Source of the DNA: an uncultured Desulfobacteraceae bacterium
GTDB lineage: Bacteria; Desulfobacterota; Desulfobacteria; Desulfobacterales; UBA5852
Direction of reading: 5' to 3'
Assembly (NCBI GenBank): GCA_942491115.1
Contig: CALNZV010000007.1
Coordinates: 194,605 to 258,604, forward strand
Length of the DNA: 64,000 nt
Part shown: in pieces, positions 8,869 to 24,742 of the stretch
Numbering within the stretch: position 1 is the first letter of the stretch
How the letters are laid out: each line of letters begins with the position of its first letter
Notes under the pieces: generated by a model
Seen by the model: the letters and a program-made list of their open reading frames with translations, nothing else
Told to the model about the DNA's origin: nothing
The model's database searches: none
Program-made: the position numbers and the translations under genes

Positions 8869-8945
<77 letters not shown>

Positions 8946-8992: not shown

Positions 8993-9225
8993 GTCTTAAA
9001 ATTTTGACACCCACCACTATACCCACCAGCCAGCTTATATATCCAAGTAAACCCAGGTAAGAGCGATGGTTAAAAACGCAGCTTCCTGCGCATGGAGCCA
9101 GAATCTCGCAGCTACAACCTCAACTCTATCCACGCCGCATTAGACCCTTCACCCGTTCATAGATCAACGGTCTCACCATCAAACCATCCTCTTAACCAAC
9201 CAAAACACACCCCGACGCGCGGCCC

Positions 9226-11457
<2,232 letters not shown>

Positions 11458-11467
11458 TTTTGAATCA

Positions 11468-11482
11468 GGGTATTTAGGGGAC
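11468..11482 (+). repeat. Left-TIR stub of element copy 1, severed by the IS110 insertion
   Basis: GGGTATTTAGGGGAC equals the first 15 nt of the element left ends at 18591 and 19108. The continuation CGCCCTTTATATTT resumes at 13211. Confidence 0.8.
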
Positions 11483-13209
11483 ATTCTATATTCCCCCTGT
11501 CAACAAAAAAATAAAAGATGAATTATCAATAAGTTATCTTTTTAGTCGGAGCCCACAAACACTTCTCCCGTCGGTATTGTATGTCGGCGAGTTTCTCTCT
11601 TCTCGGCGAACTCATGGCCTGATCGTTACAGTTATCCGGTGTCCTGCCGGAAACGGCGGCACCCATCATTCCTTATCCAGGCTTGGAGTTCAGAGAGAGG
11701 CCCGGGGATTGTCCCTCCAGAGGTTATGGCCTCAACGTCCTTTATCGGGCTCTCTCGCCGAACAAACTGCTTTGATTGTTAAAAGCGCCGCTTACACTTG
11801 CAGCAGCGCGGGATCATAATCCGTATTGTCGCGCATCATGCACCAGGCAATCACCAGCATTTTGACGGCCAGTTTCACCCGCATCTTGGTCTTGATGCCG
11901 CGCTCGCGCTCCCGCCCCTGCAGGTAGCGCGTAAACAAAGCTCGGAAGCCGTCGTTGTGATACGTGGCAATTAGCGCTGCTTGATACAAGGCATAGCGAA
12001 GGTCGCCATTGCCGCGCTTGGAGATCACCGGCACGGCCGTATCACTGCTCTTGCCGCTGCGCTTGGCATTCAGATCGTAGCCGGCCAGGCGGATAAGCTG
12101 CTTCCTGCCGGCAAAGCGGTGCGGGTTGCCGATGCGGGCGATCACCTGGGAGGCGATGTAGGGGCCAAAGCCTGGGATCGTTAACAGCCGCCGGTAAGAG
12201 GCAAAGCCCCGGCAGATGCGCTCGATGCGTTCTTCGGTATCCTCGATGCGTTCGCGCAGGCCGTTTAGGCGATCCACCAGCTGACGGGCTTCGAACCGGG
12301 CGGCATCATCCACGGGGCAGCCGACCGACACCGCAGCAGCCTCGTAGATGCGCTGCAAACGCTTGACCTGCCGTAGGCCCCGATCCCGGTCGGTGACCCG
12401 CCGGAGAAAATCGTCAAAGGATATGGCGCTGATCGTGCGCGGGTCCAGACAGCTGCGCACAATGGCCAGATTCTCTTTAAGGCAGCTGCCCCACAAGCGG
12501 TCCATCTCGGGGAAGTGGCGGACCAGAAGTCCGTTGCGAATCTGCATGCGCACGCTGTGTTCATCGCGTTTGAGCCGCTTGCGAAGCGACAGCAAGCAGC
12601 GCAACGCGGTAAGCTCCGCCGAAGGTTGTTCGAAGAACTGGCATTTGCCCTGGGCCATCAGATCAGCCACATTGGCGCTGTCCTTGGTATCGTGCTTGTC
12701 CCAGCGGCCGTCGAGACTCTCGCGGTTGTCGGCAATGGCTTTGCTGGAGACCAGGACCAAAAACCGTCTCTGCTCCAAAAGCCAATTGGCCAATGGCTTG
12801 TGGTAATTGCCGGTGGGTTCCAATCCGAAAGCGACTCTTGTGCAGGAGTGGGTCACCATCAGTTGTTCAACGCGTTCGATGAGCTGTTCAAAACCGGTGC
12901 GGTTGTTGTCAAAGATCTGGCGCTTTAAAAGGGTCTTTCCGGTGGCGGTGCCGAAGAAGGCATGGTGGCGCTCCTTGGCCACATCGATGCCTACGAGCAG
13001 ATAATCCCGGCAGCCGCGCACAGTGGAGCGAAATTGACAGAATGCCTCATACCTGTTAGCTTCTTCGTTACTCATGATAGCCTCCTCGTAGCTCGTGTTG
13101 AAGGTTTGCCCACCTTTGTGTTACCTGGAGGCTATTTTCTTTTCAAGGCGATAATTACTTTTATTTTTACTACTCTTGGAGGTATATTCTCTAACTATTT
13201 CAATATATA
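11483..13209 (-). mobile_element. IS110-family insertion sequence (~1.73 kb), no terminal inverted repeats, flanked by AC on both sides
   Basis: Boundaries inferred by comparing the interrupted element TIR with intact copies. The two ends carry an outward TTGACA and a TATATA that would form a promoter on circularisation. The 309-nt non-coding end 3' of the transposase gene suggests an IS1111-like layout. Confidence 0.85.
11792..13075 (-). CDS. IS110-family DEDD transposase
   Basis: N-terminal LLVGIDVAKERHH (DEDD/RuvC-like domain) and C-terminal LLTIPGFGPYIASQV...SKRGNGDLRYALYQAA (Transposase_20-type domain). 427 aa. RBS GAGGAGG lies upstream. Confidence 0.93.
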   Translation of the reverse strand: MSNEEANRYEAFCQFRSTVRGCRDYLLVGIDVAKERHHAFFGTATGKTLLKRQIFDNNRTGFEQLIERVEQLMVTHSCTRVAFGLEPTGNYHKPLANWLLEQRRFLVLVSSKAIADNRESLDGRWDKHDTKDSANVADLMAQGKCQFFEQPSAELTALRCLLSLRKRLKRDEHSVRMQIRNGLLVRHFPEMDRLWGSCLKENLAIVRSCLDPRTISAISFDDFLRRVTDRDRGLRQVKRLQRIYEAAAVSVGCPVDDAARFEARQLVDRLNGLRERIEDTEERIERICRGFASYRRLLTIPGFGPYIASQVIARIGNPHRFAGRKQLIRLAGYDLNAKRSGKSSDTAVPVISKRGNGDLRYALYQAALIATYHNDGFRALFTRYLQGRERERGIKTKMRVKLAVKMLVIAWCMMRDNTDYDPALLQV

Positions 13210-13829
13210 ACGCCCTTTATATTTATACATTTACTTGCGAAGTCGTTTTTGATACTGATCGAGCATGCCAAGGCGAGCGCGAATCGACGCACCGGGTGCG
13301 ATCCACCATATCATTGTCAGGGGAATCGAGCGGCGCAAGATATTCGTTGACGACGAGGACCGCCATGACTTTGTAAAACGGCTGGGCGATGTGGTTGGGC
13401 CGTCGTCCAATCGATTCGCAAGACCGGTGTATTCTTGAAAAGCGACGAACGCATTTTGGGTAGCAGCGAATTTGTGGATAAGGTCTTGGCTGCTGCCCAG
13501 GAGGTCATGCAGAACAAGTATGCACTGGCTGCTAAGGGTATTGGTTTTGACGAGGTTGTGGCTGCGGTGTCGAGACGGTTGTCGATTAAACCGCAAGCGT
13601 TGGTGGGTCCTTGCAAAGAGCGCATCATTGTAAAGGCCCGGCAGTTAGTGTGCCACTGGGCTGTGAGTGAACTGGGGTTATCGATGACCGAAGTGGCGAA
13701 GAGGTTGGAGATATCCGTGCCAACGGTAAGTGCTGCGGTAAAAAAGGGGAAGCAAATTGTCCTCAGTGAAAGATTGGTGCTGGCTGATCTATTGAATATA
13801 GAAATATGAAGGGCGTCCCTATCGTTCCC
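13210..13829 (+). mobile_element. Copy 1 of the ~0.63-kb TIR-bounded element (right 620 bp; the left 15 bp is at 11468-11482)
   Basis: Near-identical to 19108-19740. The right end ATAGAAATATGAAGGGCGTCCCTATCGTTCCC is the imperfect inverse of the left end GGGTATTTAGGGGACGCCCTTTATATTTATAC (23/32 matches). Confidence 0.85.
13265..13809 (+). pseudogene. Internally deleted Y1 (IS200/COG1943-like) transposase with C-terminal DnaA-C-like HTH
   Basis: 57-aa N-terminal ORF (MPRRARIDAPGAIHHIIVRGIERRKIFVDDEDRHDFVKRLG) stops at 13436-13438. A second frame from 13435 encodes SDERILGSSEFV...WAVSELGLSMTEVAKRLEISVPTVSAAVKKG. The segment that normally carries the HUH motif and catalytic Tyr is absent. Confidence 0.75.
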
Positions 13830-13859
13830 GCTAATGCCAGTACCGACCGGGTACGGCGG

Positions 13860-14575
13860 GGTGACACCATTGGCTATGATGGAGGGGAATCTCTCTGGTG
13901 ACGGATAGAAGGCCACGAGACCCGTACACTGCGACGACCGCGGCTTGTCCTGAAGGTGGAATTCGAAGGATAAGGAATACGATATGACGTGGCCGGGATT
14001 GTCCAGAAAAAGACGCCGGGGGATACGTTACTTTGAATATGATGAGTAAGCGAAGACCGCCGAGATTACGGATCTTCAGAAGATATGTTTATACTAGATA
14101 CGGGAATGGAATCGGGCGGATAGCGGGTATTTCTGACCTTGGAACCGTGATTATGATTACGACGCCCGCGGCCGTTTATACAAGAGACGTAATCTTGAAA
14201 ACTACGTGTTAATGAAATTTTCTTTGGGGCAGGTTGAAAGCTATATATCCAAAGATAGACGTTGAGTTTCCCGCGGTGTGATGGGAGGATATAGAAGCAA
14301 AGAGTAAATTAGGTGCGGATATGGATTGTTTCGGTATGGCGTTTAATTTTGGATCGCCGTCGGATTTATAACCCGGAGGCGACACCATGATAGCAGTATG
14401 GATTGGGTGCTTGAGGTGGTAACGGGAGTAGATGGAGAGGTTTACCACGATGAAATGGAACGTGAGGGTGTAATTGGACGATTTCTGCCTATAACCAGAC
14501 TACCAGTATGATGCCTAATGCTAATGATAGACAATATCTGGGAATTTGATACGCTAGAAAAGTGGGCAACGGTGA
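13860..14575 (+). pseudogene. Degenerate RHS/YD-repeat region
   Basis: YD-type motifs are scattered over different frames and interrupted by stops, e.g. DYDYDARGRLY (14149-14181) and RYFEYDE-stop (14026-14049). Confidence 0.5.
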
Positions 14576-15651
14576 CGGAAGAGGGCAGCAAAGAAATATA
14601 CTACACCGGATCAACAGCTGGCTTGTGACGGAGACATACCAGATGTTGTGCAGGATGCCGCCGGCAACACAACCTCCATCGGCCAGATGGATCTGATCTA
14701 CAATCAACGGAATCGCTTGATCAGGGCCGAAGACAATGGGGTGGTGGTGGGGGAATACGAGTACAATGCCATGGGACAGCGGGTTACCAAAACCATAGAT
14801 GGGGCGACGACCGTATTCATATATGACTTTGATGGCAATATCATCGCCGAAAGTGACATAGACGGCACCTTGCAAAAGGAATATATTTATATTTTGGGAA
14901 ACCGGTTTGCCATGATCGATTCGGCAACCTATTATCTTTATTTTTACCATAACGATCATTTAGGCACCCCGATACTGATGACAGATGTTTACGGGGACTT
15001 GGTGTGGGAGGGCAATTATGCGCCCTTTGGTGATGTCGAGATCAGCGAGGCATCATCTATCGAGAACAACTTCAGGTTTGCGGGCCAATACTATGACCAT
15101 GAGACTGACCTGCACTACAACTACCATCGATACTATGATCCGGCCACTGGAAGGTATCTCACGCCCGACCCGATTGGGCTGGCTGGGGGGATTAATCTGT
15201 ATGCGTATACTGAAAACAATCCGATCAATCTGATTGATCCTTTGGGATTGGACACCACCACCAATAGACTTAATTTTACATTCATTTTTGGAGATATAAC
15301 CATAGGTAGGGCAACTGATGACAAAGGTAACTCTGGATTGGTTTTCTCCGCCGCATTAGGCTTTTCCGCTTCAGTGGGCGTAACTTACGGGAAAACTACT
15401 ACCAATGCGCTACTATTGATAGCCTCCAGGGATGGGGTTCCTCTGCCGGAATAGCCGCTGGAAGCCCCTTATTATTTTTGGGAGCTGAAGTTAATAAAGT
15501 AAAAACCGGGCGATTGAATGAGAATACTTACATGGGTGAGGATTGGGGTGTCGGCTTAGGAATCGGCCTACCATCAACAGGGCAGGTATTTACAGGGATT
15601 ACAGCTCTATATAAAATGGAAGCTGAGGCTGAAAATGTCAACTGTGATTAA
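14576..15651 (+). pseudogene. RHS repeat-associated core domain plus C-terminal toxin tip (5'-degraded, frameshift near 15420)
   Basis: YD repeats then the core motif FRFAGQYYDHETDLHYNYHRYYDPATGRYLTPDPIGLAGGINLYAYTENNPINLIDPLGL. No start codon, open only from 14576. The Gly-rich tail continues in another frame to the TAA at 15649-15651. Confidence 0.85.
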
Positions 15652-15961
15652 TTCATGGCCTATTTGGGGATACTTATTATTCTTTATTTATCTTTACTAT
15701 ATAATTGTAAAGTTCCAGAATACGATTTCTGATAAGTATCCGGATGATGCTGATAAACTTATTGGAACAAAAAGAATATGGGGGATCAATCAGAAATCCG
15801 GATTATTCTTTTTATGGGACAATAATATTAAACAATTAATTCAGAATGATCATGACGTAGTCAGCCTTAGAAGAAGGTGTGTAATATCTTTTTGGATTTT
15901 TCTTTCCTTGTTAATTGTTTTGCCATTCACGGACATTATTGGTGGAATACTATTCAGGTAA
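15635..15961 (+). CDS. Small membrane protein, putative cognate immunity protein of the RHS tip
   Basis: The ATG lies inside the last codons of the toxin-tip frame (typical toxin/immunity overlap). AT-rich. Two hydrophobic helices (WPIWGYLLFFIYLYYIIV, ISFWIFLSLLIVLPF). No recognisable family. Confidence 0.5.
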   Translation: MSTVINSWPIWGYLLFFIYLYYIIVKFQNTISDKYPDDADKLIGTKRIWGINQKSGLFFLWDNNIKQLIQNDHDVVSLRRRCVISFWIFLSLLIVLPFTDIIGGILFR

Positions 15962-16049
15962 TAATGCTTAATTTCTAATTGAGTTATCCATAAAGCTCTT
16001 TGAAATATTAGTTAGATATGCGGCCAATACTTCGAGCGAGACAGGTTGA

Positions 16050-16135
16050 TTACAATTACACAGATATAGATTAAGATTGGTAGGTATATTACGGACGATT
16101 GGGTTGGTGGGGGGATAATTGTATGCGTATGTCGC
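16050..16135 (+). pseudogene. Second, degenerate RHS core-end remnant (orphan cassette)
   Basis: 16079-16132 (ggtaggtatattacggacgattgggttggtggggggataattgtatgcgtatgt) aligns with 15149-15210 (GRYLTPDPIGLAGGINLYAY region) with small indels. Confidence 0.45.
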
Positions 16136-16615
16136 ATCAAAACTAATGATATATGGGTTAAATACGCCGAGAATATGAGGTTAGGTGTATTGAGGAGGAA
16201 CTTAGCCGTGATTATAGTCTGAGATGTGCTTATTGGCGGGAATGTTGTTATGGAAATTGGCGAGGAAGGCATTGGGTGGTGAATTGGGTATGGAGTCGGT
16301 TGATTGTAGATTGGTGGATGGGTGAAGATGACGATGATAGTGTCATATTTGGTTGAATAATCTGGAATGCTGATCGATGATGATGAAACATAAAGTGGTG
16401 GTAGAAAATTGACAAGAGAATGCGGATATTTTGGAAAACAAGACGTGAGGTCGGTAGAGCTTGGAGGCTAAAACGTGAGAACGGGTTACAATAATTCACA
16501 AACACGTATTATGAAGAGGGAAACGTGGTCGATAAAAAAGGTAAGTAATCGACAATTTGTTGAATTACATGCACTAATATTTTAACGAAAACGAGCGCTA
16601 TATGTCTAATAATAA

Positions 16616-17032
16616 TCGAATGAGTATAAGTTTGGAATCCGTGGAGATGCTTTGTCGCCTAATGAAATCACTACGGTCTTGGCAATTTCTCCGACAAAAG
16701 CATGGGAAAAAGGGGCTGTATACAAATCGAAATATCAAGATAAAGATGGTTCAGTAAAAAATCGTCAAGCTAATAGGCCCTGGGGCATTTGGGAGCTATC
16801 GTCGACAGAAGAGACATCCTCTGAAGATATTGAAGACCATGCCCAAATAATTATTAAGAAGTTGTATTCTGCACAAAATATAATCAAAGAGTTGATAAAG
16901 AAACCTAGTTTGCAAGTTTATATCAGTGTTTGGTGGCAACCTGAGGGCGGATATGGTGGGTTTACATTAACCGCAGATAGTATTAATAAACTTAGTTTAT
17001 TGTGTAGAGAGATGAATTTCTATTTTTCCTGA
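16616..17032 (+). CDS. DUF4279-family protein (putative orphan immunity protein); start uncertain
   Basis: FGIRGDALSPNEITTVLAISPTKAWEKG...WGIWELSS...DIEDHAQIIIKKL...GGFTLTADSINKLSLLCREMNFYF fits the DUF4279 pattern. No in-frame ATG; the track uses the TTG at 16652. An ATG at 16602 is out of frame, so a frameshift is possible. Confidence 0.65.
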   Translation, partial: SNEYKFGIRGDALSPNEITTVLAISPTKAWEKGAVYKSKYQDKDGSVKNRQANRPWGIWELSSTEETSSEDIEDHAQIIIKKLYSAQNIIKELIKKPSLQVYISVWWQPEGGYGGFTLTADSINKLSLLCREMNFYFS

Positions 17033-17070
17033 GGAACCGAATAGGGTCGCGCCCTAATTATTCGATTGAT

Positions 17071-17113
17071 ACGGCGGTTGGAGACATTCTTCTTTAACCG
17101 CCGTTTCCTTTTT
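17071..17113 (+). terminator. Rho-independent terminator after the DUF4279 gene
   Basis: 9-bp perfect stem ACGGCGGTT/AACCGCCGT with a 15-nt loop, followed by TTCCTTTTTG. Confidence 0.6.
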
Positions 17114-17503
17114 GGGGGAAGTGCGCAGGTCTGCCGCTGGCGGTTCATGGCCTGCAGGGAGCGAGCTTCGACGGCAAGGAGACATAATGTTGGTTATTAG
17201 CGAAGCGAGGGCAGGCGTCCGCGGGGCGGTGTTTTTGTTTTAACGCAAGCGGCTGCGGAGGTGCCACGGCGGATAAGGCGGCTTATGGCCGTGCCGAGTG
17301 AAGCGACTGCGCCGATGGGAGCGACGAGGAGGCCGCTGTGGCAGCCGGAGCACGGGCGGGCGGGGCATATAGAACAGACCCGATCCTTATTTGGGCGGAT
17401 GGGCGGGTATTGATCGTCAAATCAGACGCGGCTGCGAGCGCAGGCAGCGTAATCCGCCGCAGGCGGATGAAACCCGAGCACGCAGACGCCCCGCATCTTG
17501 TGT

Positions 17504-18025
17504 TCATTGCGGCTCGCATTGATCCGCCGCATAGTCTGCTTCACCGGCTTCGATGGCTGCTTTAGCCCGTTTGTATGCCCATTTAAACGTCTGCGGGCTG
17601 GACTGGTTAAGATCGTCCTTTTTTAGCAGTTCTTTATTTTTTTACGATGTCGATTGTTGATCGCTGCCGCCAGGTCGATTAAGAAGATGCGTGCTGGTTG
17701 CGAAGCGCATTATATTTATTCCCGGCCATGTGGTGGGCGTTTGCACGCTTGTTGGGGTTTAGAAACGTCATCAGCGCAGTCAGTGCTGTTACAATTATAG
17801 CGAGGTATCCCGCCAAAGAGGTGTTATCCTTAAACGCCGATGCACTTGCGATGGCCGCAAGTACAGCGGTCGGCAGCCCAGGCCAAAATGCATCAGTGAC
17901 CAGATGCGGGCAGTCTCAAAATGCCGCTTGGCGGAAAATAGAGTATCTTCTATTATTCGTTGCGTCTCTTTCTGGATAGCGACTCGAAGCTGGACATCCA
18001 TTTGCTCTAATCCCTTTTCATCCAT
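17504..18025 (-). pseudogene. SLATT-domain 2TM effector, frameshifted
   Basis: Spread over three frames: KRHFETARIWSLMHFGLG / LPTAVLAAIASASAF..LAIIVTALTALMTFLNPNKRANAHHMAGNKYNALRN / ELLKKDDLNQSSPQTFKWAYKRAKAAIEAGEADYAAD. The order and content fit the SLATT family. Confidence 0.6.
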
Positions 18026-18590
18026 AGGTCAGGAAATATCCTTCAAATATTTTCTTCCATTCTGCAAAAGCGCTGCTGGTGTATCCTTGGGCCTCATACA
18101 TCTCGGCCTTTATCGCTCTGTTGTACGCCGTCTCGAACCTGCTCTGGGCGTCTTTTACCGTAGAGACATAGTTTAAGCCGCTTACCTGTTCGTCGTTAAG
18201 GCCAGCAGGATCTATCATTTTAAATTTTATTCTTTCTCGCCCTTTATCGAATACATATCGCACCCCTGATGGATAGCTGGAAATCGTGACTCCGTCCAGG
18301 ATGCTTTTGACCATCAACTCCAGGTAAAACCCATAGAATGCGTTTGAGATGCAGCGGCTCCAGCCTTTTATCATCTTTACCAAGGGGACAAGGTTGCCGT
18401 TGTGCCAGGTGTTTGCTTGCGTCATTTGGCTTTCATGAACCGTTGGGTCGGTGGATATCCAGCGGCTGCTTATCGAGTCCGGAATCAGGTAGCCGCCACC
18501 CTGCCTGTAGAAATGGGGACGACATCAACCATAAAGTCCGTAAACGTGATGGTCACCGCCTGGCCGTTGCGACTTATCCTGGGGCTTTTG
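18018..18590 (-). pseudogene. SMODS/CD-NTase-like nucleotidyltransferase, 5'-truncated and frameshifted
   Basis: AVTITFTDFMVDVVPI (frame a), then GGGYLIPDSISSRWISTDPTVH...NGNLVPLVKMIKGWSR...FYGFYLELMV (frame b). The N-terminal catalytic part is missing where element copy 2 begins at 18591. The stop overlaps the SLATT start. Confidence 0.55.
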
Positions 18591-19107
18591 GGGTATTTAG
18601 GGGACGCCCTTTATATTTATACATTTACTTGCGAAGTCGTTTTTGATACTGATCGAGCATGCCAAGGCGAGCGCGAATCGACGCACCGGGTGCGATCACC
18701 ATATATTGTAGGGGAATCGAGCGGCGCAAGATATTCGTTGACGACGAGGACCGCCATGACTTTGTAAAACGGCTGGGCGATGTGGTTGGGCCGTCGTCCA
18801 ATCGATTCGCAAGACCGGTGTATTCTTGAAAAGCGACGAACGCATTTTGGGTAGCAGCGAATTTGTGGATAAGGTCTTGGCTGCTGCCCAGGAGGTCATG
18901 CAGAACAAATGTGCACTGGCTGCCAAGGGTATTGGTTTTGACGAGGTTGTGGCTGCGGTGTCGAGACGGTTGTCGATTAAACCGCAAGCGTTGGTGGGTC
19001 CTTGCAAAGAGCGCATCATTGTAAAGGCCCGGCAGTTAGTGTGCCACTGGGCTGTGAGTGAACTGGGGTTATCGATGACCGAAGTGGCGAAGAGGTTGGA
19101 GATATCC
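18591..19107 (+). mobile_element. Copy 2 of the 0.63-kb element, lacking the last ~112 bp and the right TIR
   Basis: Starts with the left TIR GGGTATTTAGGGGACGCCC. Collinear with copy 3 up to GAGATATCCG, then runs directly into the left TIR of copy 3. Small deletions lie in the N-terminal ORF. Confidence 0.85.
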
Positions 19108-19740
19108 GGGTATTTAGGGGACGCCCTTTATATTTATACATTTACTTGCGAAGTCGTTTTTGATACTGATCGAGCATGCCAAGGCGAGCGCGAATCGACG
19201 CACCGGGTGCGATCCACCATATCATTGTCAGGGGAATCGAGCGGCGCAAGATATTCGTTGACGACGAGGACCGCCATGACTTTGTAAAACGGCTGGGCGA
19301 TGTGGTTGGGCCGTCGTCCAATCGATTCGCAAGACCGGTGTATTCTTGAAAAGCGACGAACGCATTTTGGGTAGCAGCGAATTTGTGGATAAGGTCTTGG
19401 CTGCTGCCCAGGAGGTCATGCAGAACAAATGTGCACGGGCTGCCAAGGGTATTGGTTTTGACGAGGTTGTGGCTGCGGTGTCGAGACGGTTGTCGATTAA
19501 ACCGCAAGCGTTGGTGGGTCCTTGCAAAGAGCGCATCATTGTAAAGGCCCGGCAGTTAGTGTGCCACTGGGCTGTGAGTGAACTGGGGTTATCGATGACC
19601 GAAGTGGCGAAGAGGTTGGAGATATCCGTGCCAACGGTAAGTGCTGCGGTAAAAAAGGGGAAGCAAATTGTCCTCAGTGAAAGATTGGTGCTGGCTGATC
19701 TATTGAATATAGAAATATGAAGGGCGTCCCTATCGTTCCC
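19108..19740 (+). mobile_element. Copy 3 of the 0.63-kb element, complete (both TIRs)
   Basis: Left TIR 19108-19140 and right TIR 19709-19740. Same two-part pseudogene as copy 1 (C-terminal ORF 19346-19720). A few SNPs versus copies 1 and 2. The last 10 bp TATCGTTCCC is repeated at 19741-19750. Confidence 0.88.
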
Positions 19741-19781
19741 TATCGTTCCCCATTTTAAGCATCGGAATATGAGGAGGTAGC

Positions 19782-20715
19782 ATGCTCATTCAGGTTCCCT
19801 TCAGATCATCAACCAGGGTGTTAAGGCTTGGGGTAAGTGGAGATCAATGAATCGATCTTTGGTTCCGAATCTTAGGGGCGCAGACCTAAGCCATCAAAAC
19901 CTATGTGGAGTTGACTTTAGTAGAGCAGATCTCAACGTTGCCAATCTCAGGAATACAATGCTCTGCAAGGCTGATCTAAGTGGAGCAAACCTTTCTGAAG
20001 TAGACCTAAGCGGGGCAGATCTTAGTGGTGCAAAGCTCTTTGGACTAATTTTACAGAGGCTAATTTGAGCGGTGCAAATTTATCTAACGCATCCATCAAT
20101 TCCGCCTCCTTCGCAAAGGTGAATCTTTGCGATGTTGATGGATTAGATACCATCTATCACAGAGGGCCCTCTTCACTCGGTATAGACACGCTCATCAAGT
20201 CCAAAGGCAAAATACCAGAATTATTCCTCCGTGGATGCGGTGTTCCAGAATCAATAATCCAATACATTCCAACTATGATTGGCAGCGCGATCGAGTTTAT
20301 ACATGCTTCATAAGCTACTCCCATATAGACAATCCTTTGCCAAACGCCTACACGATACTCTTCAAGGAAGGGGTATCAGATGCTGGCTTGACGATCACCA
20401 GATGCTCCCTGGTGACGATATTTATGCGCAAGTAGACCGTGGTATCCGCCTCTGGGACAAAGTCCTTCTCTGTTGTTCTGAGCACTCTCTTAAAAGCTGG
20501 TGGGTGGACAACGAGATCGATATTGTTTGAAAAGAGCGCCGGTTGATGACGGATGAGGTAAGAAGTATTGTCTCTGATTCTTTGACCTTGACGGATACTT
20601 TTTAGTGACGCCTGGGAAGCGGCAACAGCAATAATCGCTGCTGCTGATTTACTGGATGGGAATCAGACAATGCAAGTTCGAGGCGGAGGTCGAGAAAGTT
20701 GTGAAGCGCTGAGGG
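19782..20715 (+). pseudogene. Pentapeptide-repeat / TIR-domain fusion protein, several frameshifts
   Basis: RBS GGAGG plus the ATG at 19782. INQGVKAWGKWR, then A(D/N)LSGA pentapeptide repeats, then TIR (CFISYSH...GIRCWLDDHQMLPGDDI...KVLLCCSEHSLKSWWVDNEI...FEAEVEKVVKAL). These are read across at least 4 frames. Confidence 0.7.
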
Positions 20716-20799
20716 CTGATACGGGGGTGAGGTGCCGGAGCGAACTTATCATTACCAAGGAGGTTGTGGCTACCAAGACCATATTACAGCCTGATCATG

Positions 20800-21686
20800 G
20801 TAATTTGGATGAGTGAGAGAATCCTGATGTGATTCAGATTTTAGGATGAAAACTCCAGAAAAAGTATCTTAGAAGGTGGATTTAGCGGGGCAGATCTAGT
20901 GGAGCGAATTAAGAAAACAAGACTTGTGGAGCGATTTTGCGGTGCAGACCTTGAGGACAACTCGGAAGCTTTTCCTGTATGCAAACTGAGGGAGCTAACT
21001 CAGGAGATCTATCTTTCGAAGCGAGCTTCATATGCGATTTTATACGGCGCTATCTCAGAGGGCATGCATTAGCGGATTTCAGAGCGGACCTCAGTGGGGC
21101 AGATCTTAAGCCTAAAGCTCGGGGCGAATTTATAACTGTGATGTTATGGTATTTTGTTGGGGTGTATACTCGAAGGCATCAAGGAGCAAAAAAACCTCAG
21201 AGTAACCCCTCCAAATGACCGGCGGTCTACATCGATAACCTCGAAGTCGCCCAGTTCGTTTACCTCCTCCTCAACAACGATAAGATTCGCAGTGTCATAG
21301 ACACCATTGGAGAAAAGGGTGTCCTCATCCTCGGGCGTTTCACGCCCGAGCGCAAAGCTGTCCTTGATGCCATACGGGACAAACTGCGAGAATTTGGGTT
21401 TGTCCCGATGATGTTCGACTTCGATCCATCTGACAAACGAGACTTCACTGAAACGATACGGATTCTCGCAGGAATGAGCAGATTTATCATTGCTGACATC
21501 AGTGAACCGAAGTGCATTCCCTTGGAGCTACAGGCAATTGTTCCTGACTATGCCATCCCTTTGGTACCGATTTTCCACGTCCAGCAAGAGCAAGAAGCCA
21601 AAAAGCCTTTCGCTATGATCAAAGACCTTCAAAAGCATGATTGGGTCTTCGATGTACTTGAGTATGAACATCGGGTATCCTCCTGA
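20800..21686 (+). pseudogene. Second pentapeptide-repeat protein remnant with a conserved-looking C-terminal alpha/beta domain
   Basis: Degenerate repeats (GADL.., ADLSGADL) in 20860-21216. Open frame 21219-21686 without a start: VLILGRFTPERKAVLDAIRDKLREFGFVPMMFDFDPSDKRDFTETIRILAGMSRFIIADISEPKCIPLELQAIVP. Domain family not identified. Confidence 0.4.
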
Positions 21687-24646: not shown

Positions 24647-24742
24647 TTAATAAGGATTGGCCTTTTTGACGATCCGACCCTCTGAGTCAACCGTCGTAAG
24701 AAAAGATGTTTTCCGATGCAGATCGTTGCCTGAATAATACAT
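24647..24742 (-). pseudogene. N-terminal fragment of a second IS110-family transposase
   Basis: RBS AAGGAGG then MYYSGNDLHRKTSFLTTVDSEGRIVKKANPY-stop, matching the usual IS110 N-terminus (M.Y.G.DLHKK.S...D..G.IV). The downstream sequence is not recognisable. Confidence 0.5.

Follow-up and report, generated by a model that had tools for sequence, protein, structure and literature searches.

Probable RNA-guided insertion of an IS110-family element into the terminal repeat of a Y1/helix-turn-helix element in an uncultured Desulfobacteraceae bacterium

Among the closest described systems, the insertion sequence (IS) IS621 has a 7-nucleotide (nt) left guide and a 4-bp right guide (PMC11208160), the RNA of the IS1111 group is carried on a long right end (PMC11208160), and IS1111 types have their non-coding region downstream of the gene (PMC11187229). 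In the seekRNA elements, the abutted ends form a promoter (PMC11187229), and IS621, ISPa11 and ISPpu9 insert in repetitive extragenic palindromic (REP) sequences. Here we analysed a 64,000-nt stretch of DNA, hereafter called the window, from an uncultured Desulfobacteraceae bacterium (contig CALNZV010000007.1, positions 194,605 to 258,604), which contains an IS110-family IS at 11483-13209 on the minus strand. Very probably, this intact IS entered the left terminal inverted repeat (TIR) of a small, internally deleted Y1/helix-turn-helix element, similar to REP-associated tyrosine transposase (RAYT) elements, by RNA-guided, site-specific recombination.

The IS splits the 28-nt repeat end GGGTATTTAGGGGACGCCCTTTATATTT, of which exact uninterrupted copies lie on the plus strand at 18591-18618 and 19108-19135 and nowhere else, and no chance match to this 28-mer was found in 100 dinucleotide-preserving shuffles. 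The outer half of the interrupted end, GGGTATTTAGGGGAC, occupies 11468-11482 on the plus strand and is identical to the opening 15 nt of both uninterrupted copies. It is followed by the 1727-nt insert (11483-13209), after which the repeat resumes as ACGCCCTTTATATTT at 13210-13224. The two halves sum to 30 nt compared to 28 nt in the intact end, so that precisely the dinucleotide AC occurs twice, once on each side of the insert (11481-11482 and 13210-13211). The 1727 nt therefore represent the body of the IS without either AC, and a circle with one core would measure 1729 nt. These observations bear out an earlier note on this DNA, which had described an IS inserted inside the terminal repeat of another mobile element with AC on both sides of a 1727-bp insert, and had taken the second and third copies of that element as empty sites. 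Both copies indeed carry the exact 28-mer as an empty target site. The target site of the window IS has the sequence GGGTATTTAGGGGACGCCC. In transposase orientation, the IS begins TATATATTGAAATAG and finishes GGGGGAATATAGAAT, the sequences marking its ends being TATATATTGAAATAGTTAGAG and GGGGGAATATAGAAT. No second copy of the IS, of its ends or of its RNA was found within the window.

The IS encodes an intact recombinase (transposase) of 427 aa on the minus strand (11792-13075), with AGGAGG upstream of the ATG. A Pfam scan revealed the DEDD_Tnp_IS110 domain (PF01548) at residues 28-189, matched over the full-length profile with an E-value of 1.1e-23 (84.2 bits), and the Transposase_20 domain (PF02371) at residues 295-380 with an E-value of 3.5e-17 (63 bits). 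The protein also scored 194.4 bits against NCBIfam NF033542, 'IS110 family RNA-guided transposase', for which the cut-off is 140. Furthermore, it aligned to the IS621 transposase 8wt6 in two local matches (E = 1.2e-14) with the catalytic Asp/Glu and Ser motifs in register, namely GIDxAKE (GIDVAKE), E-x-TG-x-Y (LEPTGNY), D-T-x-D (KHDTKDS) and SG-x-S, the RSGKS of the recombinase lying opposite the ESGSS of IS621 in the serine region. The domains, the NF033542 score and the alignment to 8wt6 confirm the assignment to the IS110 family made in the earlier note. The best protein match among 72,556 plasmid records shared approximately 31% identity, and such relatives are annotated merely as IS110 family or ISRel25. 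A look-up of the exact protein returned no record. A tblastn search of the window with the intact transposase found similarity to no other place. If the sequence at 24647-24742 is a real second IS110-type gene start, it would belong to a distant member of the family.

A scan seeded with the protein, covering one genome per species, gave 78 related loci, referred to below by L numbers. The best match shares 91% aa identity, and all of the loci lie in other genomes than that of the window, so that none is a sister copy of the window IS. The hosts of this IS clade are uncultured Desulfobacterota, Nitrospirota and similar lineages. Five relatives from other genomes that are 84-89% identical at the nucleotide level have the same first and last bases and GT (the AC of the window, in transposase orientation) on each side, within unrelated surroundings, and the ends of the window IS recur in L001, L002, L003, L005, L052 and L079-L083. 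Even in more distant relatives (46-59% aa identity), the left end still begins TATATAT and the right end still finishes ...TATAG(G/A)AT. Among the relatives taken from genome assemblies, GT lies outside the element at all located junctions, 31 left and 58 right. A scan with the first 25 nt of the element added five further metagenome contigs, in which all left junctions read GT followed by TATATATTG. The dinucleotide never varies with the site, which supports the view that AC, GT in transposase orientation, is a core common to donor and target rather than a target-site duplication, as the earlier note had proposed. The flanks of related copies differ from one another and co-vary with the guide patches carried by each copy. 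Hence, rather than unrelated flanks and different end coordinates, the relatives in other genomes, on which the matter was judged, have the same ends and flanks that track their guides.

These guides are located in a predicted structured RNA. The IS has non-coding ends of 134 nt 5' and 309 nt 3' of the gene in transposase orientation, and within the 3' end (11483-11791) we located a conserved structured non-coding RNA, a bridge/seek RNA candidate, at 11543-11772 on the minus strand. With an nhmmer profile, 65 of the 78 loci proved to carry homologous RNA downstream of their recombinase gene. Among the 3' ends of close relatives, the RNA scaffold is nearly invariant and only two short patches are hypervariable, and the same two patches vary in the wider set. 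On an alignment of 30 sequences (A1), we proposed a structure of five helices. One is a long-range closing helix, two belong, as outer and inner helix, to a first internal loop that carries both target patches, and the remaining two stand in the same relation to a second internal loop. RNAalifold missed the closing helix and the outer helix of the second, donor-binding loop, both of which were added by hand and tested. In the complete structure, 93.4% of the cells are paired and 15 pairs show compensatory changes, compared to 29-45% and 4-7 pairs in controls slid in the 3' direction, and none of 500 shuffles reached the observed structure. The single-sequence fold of the 3' end is uninformative alone (z = -1.49), and the structure is clear only from the alignment.

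The first hypervariable patch ends in GU and repeats the left flank plus the core. The second ends in AC and, read as its reverse complement, gives the core followed by the right flank. For the window IS, the left target guide patch, GAUAAAGGAC-GU (11735-11746, minus strand), agrees at 11 of 12 positions with the top strand across the left flank and the core (TATAAAGGGC-GT). The right patch, GGAGGGAC (11711-11718, minus strand), complements the core and the right flank, GGGAC pairing with GTCCC over 5 contiguous positions before a mismatch at +4. Comparable matches between a guide and its own flank are found elsewhere, on the left at 10/10 in L057, at 9 in L048, L043 and L010 and at 8 in L003, L016, L065, L066 and L032, and on the right at 9/9 in L015 and at 7 in L013, L067 and L057. 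Over de-duplicated loci, the left guide scored 6.1/10 with its own flank versus 4.1 with other loci, and the right guide 4.26/7 versus 3.3; in both cases, 0 of 10,000 permutations scored as high. The signal spans -1 to about -9 on the left (approximately 7-9 nt) and +1 to +4 on the right (3-4 nt), plus the 2-nt core.

The length of this footprint fits the target of about 14 nt suggested by the earlier note, which had also expected the same sequence beside other copies; the flanks of the relatives are not one 14-mer and co-vary instead with the guides. The same note regarded the palindrome-like core GGGACGCCC as a feature of the target. We rejected this mini-palindrome as a recognition feature, as its 4-bp hairpin is marginal (-2.8 kcal/mol) and 19 of 200 shuffles fold as well. 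It is also not needed, because pairing with the element's own RNA explains the choice of site.

Several points weigh against RNA-guided entry as we describe it. A search of Rfam 15 over 9000-21000 (E <= 1) gave no RNA family match except a chance microRNA at 20073-20154. Because Rfam gave no match, the assignment of the RNA rests on our own alignment. The occupied site mismatches the guides at -2 (A versus G, left) and at +4 (U versus C, right), and position -2 agrees in 90% of the other loci. The left flank is also poorly matched in the relatives L002, L061, L008 and L023. Finally, the assembly is unreliable to the left of the IS, where poly-G junk begins 27 nt away. Judged by its predicted pairing, the window site is near-cognate, with one mismatch on each side.

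The two mismatches raise the possibility that the insertion was guided by an RNA other than that now encoded by this copy, either in trans by the perfect guide of a sister copy, or by a guide that later drifted and left the resident IS as a relic. Action in trans has been documented for IS621 and ISEc11 (PMC11208160, PMC11187229). Moreover, the left guide of L002, UUUUAUGGAC, misfits its flank GTAGTCACCAAC, which resembles both the L005 guide UUUCAACAAC and the flank of L052, a locus in the same genome as L002. This pattern hints that guide RNAs may act in trans between sister copies or that guides may be exchanged. Four more candidate sites within 8 kb in the window, namely two right repeats and the two empty left repeats, are unoccupied. 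Nevertheless, we regard guidance by another RNA as unlikely. The match of 11/12 on the left and 5 contiguous positions on the right far exceeds that obtained with the guides of other loci, position +4 agrees in only 55% of loci and is hence weakly read, and the open reading frame, the RNA scaffold and both promoter halves described below are intact. Pairing of the target with the RNA of the resident copy thus remains the reading that we prefer. We also observed that the right terminal repeats of the target element at 13806-13826 and 19717-19737 (ATATGAAGGGC-GT-CCCT) match the right guide at 4/4 positions, better than the occupied site, and the left guide at 7/10, worse than the occupied site.

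The second internal loop provides a counterpart for the ends of the IS itself. On its 5' strand, the candidate left donor guide AUAAGGAAUGA (11666-11676, minus strand) matches the last bases of the element (ATATAGAATG). Only one base of this patch varies, and it is the same as the base at -3 of the right end in 49 of the 50 distinct elements (G/G in 42, A/A in 6 and C/C in 1), which identifies the second loop as the donor-binding loop. On its 3' strand, AUAAC and an invariant GUAAC (11625-11635, minus strand) are candidate right donor guides that complement the core and the element start (GT-TAT). These are proposed from sequence only, because the left end is invariant in the relatives.

The ends of the IS also carry what appear to be the two halves of a promoter. 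A -35 hexamer, TTGACA (11498-11503, minus strand), lies 15 nt from the right end, and a -10-like TATATA (13204-13209, minus strand) stands at the very start of the left end, so that TTGACA-N17-TATATA would be formed only if the ends were joined through one core, as we infer for the circle. Of 50 distinct right-end tails, 45 retain TTGACA; the spacer including GT measures 17 nt in 38 cases and 18 nt in 10, and the left end starts with TATATAT in 31/31 loci. This conservation of both halves and of their spacing supports both the boundaries of the IS and a circular intermediate that keeps the core, in line with what is described for the family (PMC11187229). We propose that the IS would excise as a circle, its right end linked to its left end through one GT. 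The promoter so assembled would drive the recombinase and the RNA. Donor junction and target would be kept in contact by the RNA, and strands would be exchanged by the recombinase at the common GT. Such an exchange would leave GT on both sides without a true duplication.

Alternatively, the AC pair could be an ordinary 2-bp target-site duplication arising from staggered cuts, and a 2-bp direct repeat flanking an IS does, by itself, resemble one. We consider this highly improbable. GT is found at every located junction across very different contexts, whereas a target-site duplication would vary by site, and each of the two target guide patches closes with the core or the complement of the core. 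The promoter spacer measures 17 nt only with one GT retained between the joined ends, and the protein is of the DEDD/serine recombinase type, not a DDE transposase.

Normal sequence to the left of the IS extends over only about 27 nt (11456-11482). Before it, a tract of approximately 2.2 kb of poly-G and then G/A-only sequence (9190-11455) directly follows a tRNA-Met gene (8869-8945) and holds a 60-nt fragment of the Y1 element (9650-9709, 97% identity) that dissolves into G. The tract looks like a sequencing or assembly artefact that masks the real left context of the IS. This neighbourhood could suggest that the IS was misjoined to the repeat end in an assembly chimera, which we likewise consider highly improbable. 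The halves of the 28-mer at the two junctions complement each other exactly, and each has the core. The independent assemblies L016, L028, L042, L049 and L080-L083 reproduce where the IS lies, how it is oriented and how far it is from the Y1 start codon (55 nt in the window), and a chimera would not recreate a site matched to the guides. Both junctions of copy 1 are exactly as the relatives predict, despite the neighbouring poly-G tract.

The interrupted repeat is the left TIR of an element of approximately 630 bp, present in three copies in the window that share 99% identity. Past the insertion, the rest of copy 1 (13210-13830, plus strand) is made up of the second core AC, the remainder of the left TIR on its inner side, a 57-codon start of a Y1 transposase (ATG at 13265), a Bac_DnaA_C-type helix-turn-helix and the right TIR, AAATATGAAGGGCGTCCC..., which is the inverse of GGGGACGCCCTTTATATTT. 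All three copies (13210-13830, 18591-19107 and 19108-19740) are internally deleted and have imperfect TIRs of 18-33 bp. The 57 N-terminal Y1 codons of the window copies give no Pfam match, and the Bac_DnaA_C piece scores 31.6 bits versus a cut-off of 31.5. Full-length homologues of 261-333 aa are encoded beside related IS copies. Those of L049, L009 and L016 match Y1_Tnp (PF01797) with 35-40 bits versus a cut-off of 23, and against the NCBIfam model REP_Tyr_transpos (REP-associated tyrosine transposase) the full-length homologues reach 60-62 bits, below the cut-off of 80. These Y1 elements are framed by inverted repeats of 20-30 bp beginning GGG(G)ACG (e.g., L049, L009, L016 and L083). An HUH Y1 gene within true TIRs is unusual and may represent an undescribed type of element.

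Copy 2 ends with ...GAGATATCCG at 19107 and copy 3 begins at once, which indicates a head-to-tail partial duplication of 520 nt rather than one copy nested in the other. In the 19721-19750 region, TATCGTTCCC is tandemly duplicated where copy 3 has its right end. Both the duplication of copies 2 and 3 and this tandem repeat could be real or an effect of the assembly.

The association of the IS with the ends of Y1 elements is not confined to the window. The Y1 start codon lies 52-81 nt from the left end of the IS, in divergent orientation, in the window (55 nt) and in L016, L028, L042, L049, L080, L081, L082 and L083, while in L009 and L069 the IS occupies the 3' repeat and is co-oriented with the Y1 gene. 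Members of this IS clade land repeatedly at the same position in Y1 terminal repeats, pointing against the Y1 gene when at the 5' repeat and along with it when at the 3' repeat, and relatives of the window IS are so placed in at least a dozen other loci. The clade thus behaves like a parasite that lives on another mobile element. In L043, the target forms one arm of a pair of repeats of approximately 190 bp that is MITE-like (miniature inverted-repeat transposable element), with an inverted partner at 19/20. An inverted partner of the target site is clear in L043 and L049 and weaker in L055 and L060, and otherwise no better than in shuffles. The link with Y1 element ends is thus frequent, not universal. 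Other members of the clade with other guides sit in other repeats, as in the Nitrospiraceae loci L015, L017, L018, L020, L025 and L057, whose guides differ and which adjoin a REP-like hairpin (ATTCCGC-N9-GCGGAAT). L015, L017 and L018 have more than 40 nt of left flank in common, so that their target itself belongs to a larger repeat. In L031 (4110-4345), the right end of the IS falls exactly where a Y1 gene breaks off after approximately 77 codons, which places this insertion apparently inside the Y1 coding region and not in a terminal repeat.

Tentatively, and with somewhat more reserve than confidence, we suggest a broader view, in which the whole clade of guide RNA-bearing ISs from Desulfobacterota, Nitrospirota and other uncultured lineages would live as specialised parasites on Y1 (RAYT-like)/helix-turn-helix elements bounded by TIRs and on their MITE-like derivatives. 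Entry would always occur between GGGGAC and G at the outer edge of the repeat, and the guides would track the divergence of the host elements. The host family, an HUH Y1 gene within TIRs of 20-30 bp, may itself be an undescribed kind of IS.

With respect to classification, the locus combines the features of the IS110 family, i.e. PF01548, PF02371 with its serine region, no terminal inverted repeats, a fixed core dinucleotide and an RNA with two loops, with the layout of the IS1111 subgroup, in which a longer non-coding region and the guide RNA lie downstream of the recombinase gene. This supports placement in the IS110 family in the broad sense with an IS1111-like layout, that is, a long non-coding region 3' of the recombinase gene. 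The absence of inverted repeats at the ends, also claimed in the earlier note, holds for the termini of the IS, which overlap over just 4-6 nt (TATATT/AATATA). Further inside, at 11507-11517 and 13158-13168, there is a perfect 11-nt, A/T-only subterminal inverted repeat, its arms 25 and 42 nt away from the IS ends, with a score reached by none of 100 shuffles. Among 25 relatives, no subterminal inverted repeat is conserved in place or sequence, and most of the best matches are no better than in shuffles. Because no conserved subterminal inverted repeat was found, we assign the element to the IS110 family, within which it may belong to the IS1111 subgroup.

Bridge/seek-RNA recombinases are under development as programmable tools for genome insertion. 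The locus described here and its approximately 60 natural relatives add a divergent clade, with at most 31% identity to plasmid-borne relatives of the IS110 family and only a distant match to IS621, that contributes a compact scaffold, a 3' guide RNA and a GT core. Its series of natural guide/target pairs shows which positions are read, approximately -1 to -9 on the left and +1 to +4 on the right. The clade also provides a case of one mobile element repeatedly landing in the ends of another, extending the precedents of IS4321/IS5075 in Tn21 and of REP sequences to the Y1 elements of anaerobic and sediment lineages. For this genome, the consequence is an ordinary one, another IS in a decayed island adjacent to tRNA-Met.

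Like IS4321/IS5075, which insert in the terminal repeats of Tn21-family transposons, the window IS encodes a DEDD recombinase, has a 3' non-coding region, and occupies a fixed position in one orientation inside the TIR of another transposable element without a variable duplication. It differs in its host, a Y1 (HUH, RAYT-like) element with a helix-turn-helix instead of a Tn3-family transposon, in that no conserved 7-17-bp subterminal inverted repeat was found in its clade, and in the bacteria concerned, uncultured Desulfobacterota, Nitrospirota and similar lineages.

With IS621 (IS110 group; PMC11208160, PMC11208158; PDB 8wt6), the window IS shares the recombinase domains and catalytic motifs, a two-loop RNA whose left guide is identical to one strand of the target and whose right guide is complementary to the other, both including the core, guide lengths of approximately 7-9 nt on the left and 4 nt on the right, a promoter split across the ends, and a preference for repeated sequences. 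Conversely, its RNA lies 3' of the gene instead of 5', its core is GT instead of CT, sequence identity is low, and a long-range closing helix, together with an additional 3' hairpin, sets the RNA apart.

A downstream guide RNA and an abutted-end promoter are likewise found in the seekRNA elements ISEc11, ISPa11, ISKpn4 and ISPst6 of the IS1111 family (PMC11187229) and in ISPpu9, which resides in REP sequences (PMC12288879, PMC8450116). The targets of these elements are also repeated or mobile DNA, such as REP sequences, attC sites and transposon ends. Unlike them, the window IS targets the terminal repeats of Y1/helix-turn-helix elements and MITE-like derivatives, the hallmark subterminal inverted repeat is not evident, and its clade is known from sequence alone. 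It is well supported that the mechanism is one already known from IS4321/IS5075, IS621 and the seekRNA elements, and that what is new is the clade, its GT core, the details of its RNA scaffold and the class of element that hosts it.

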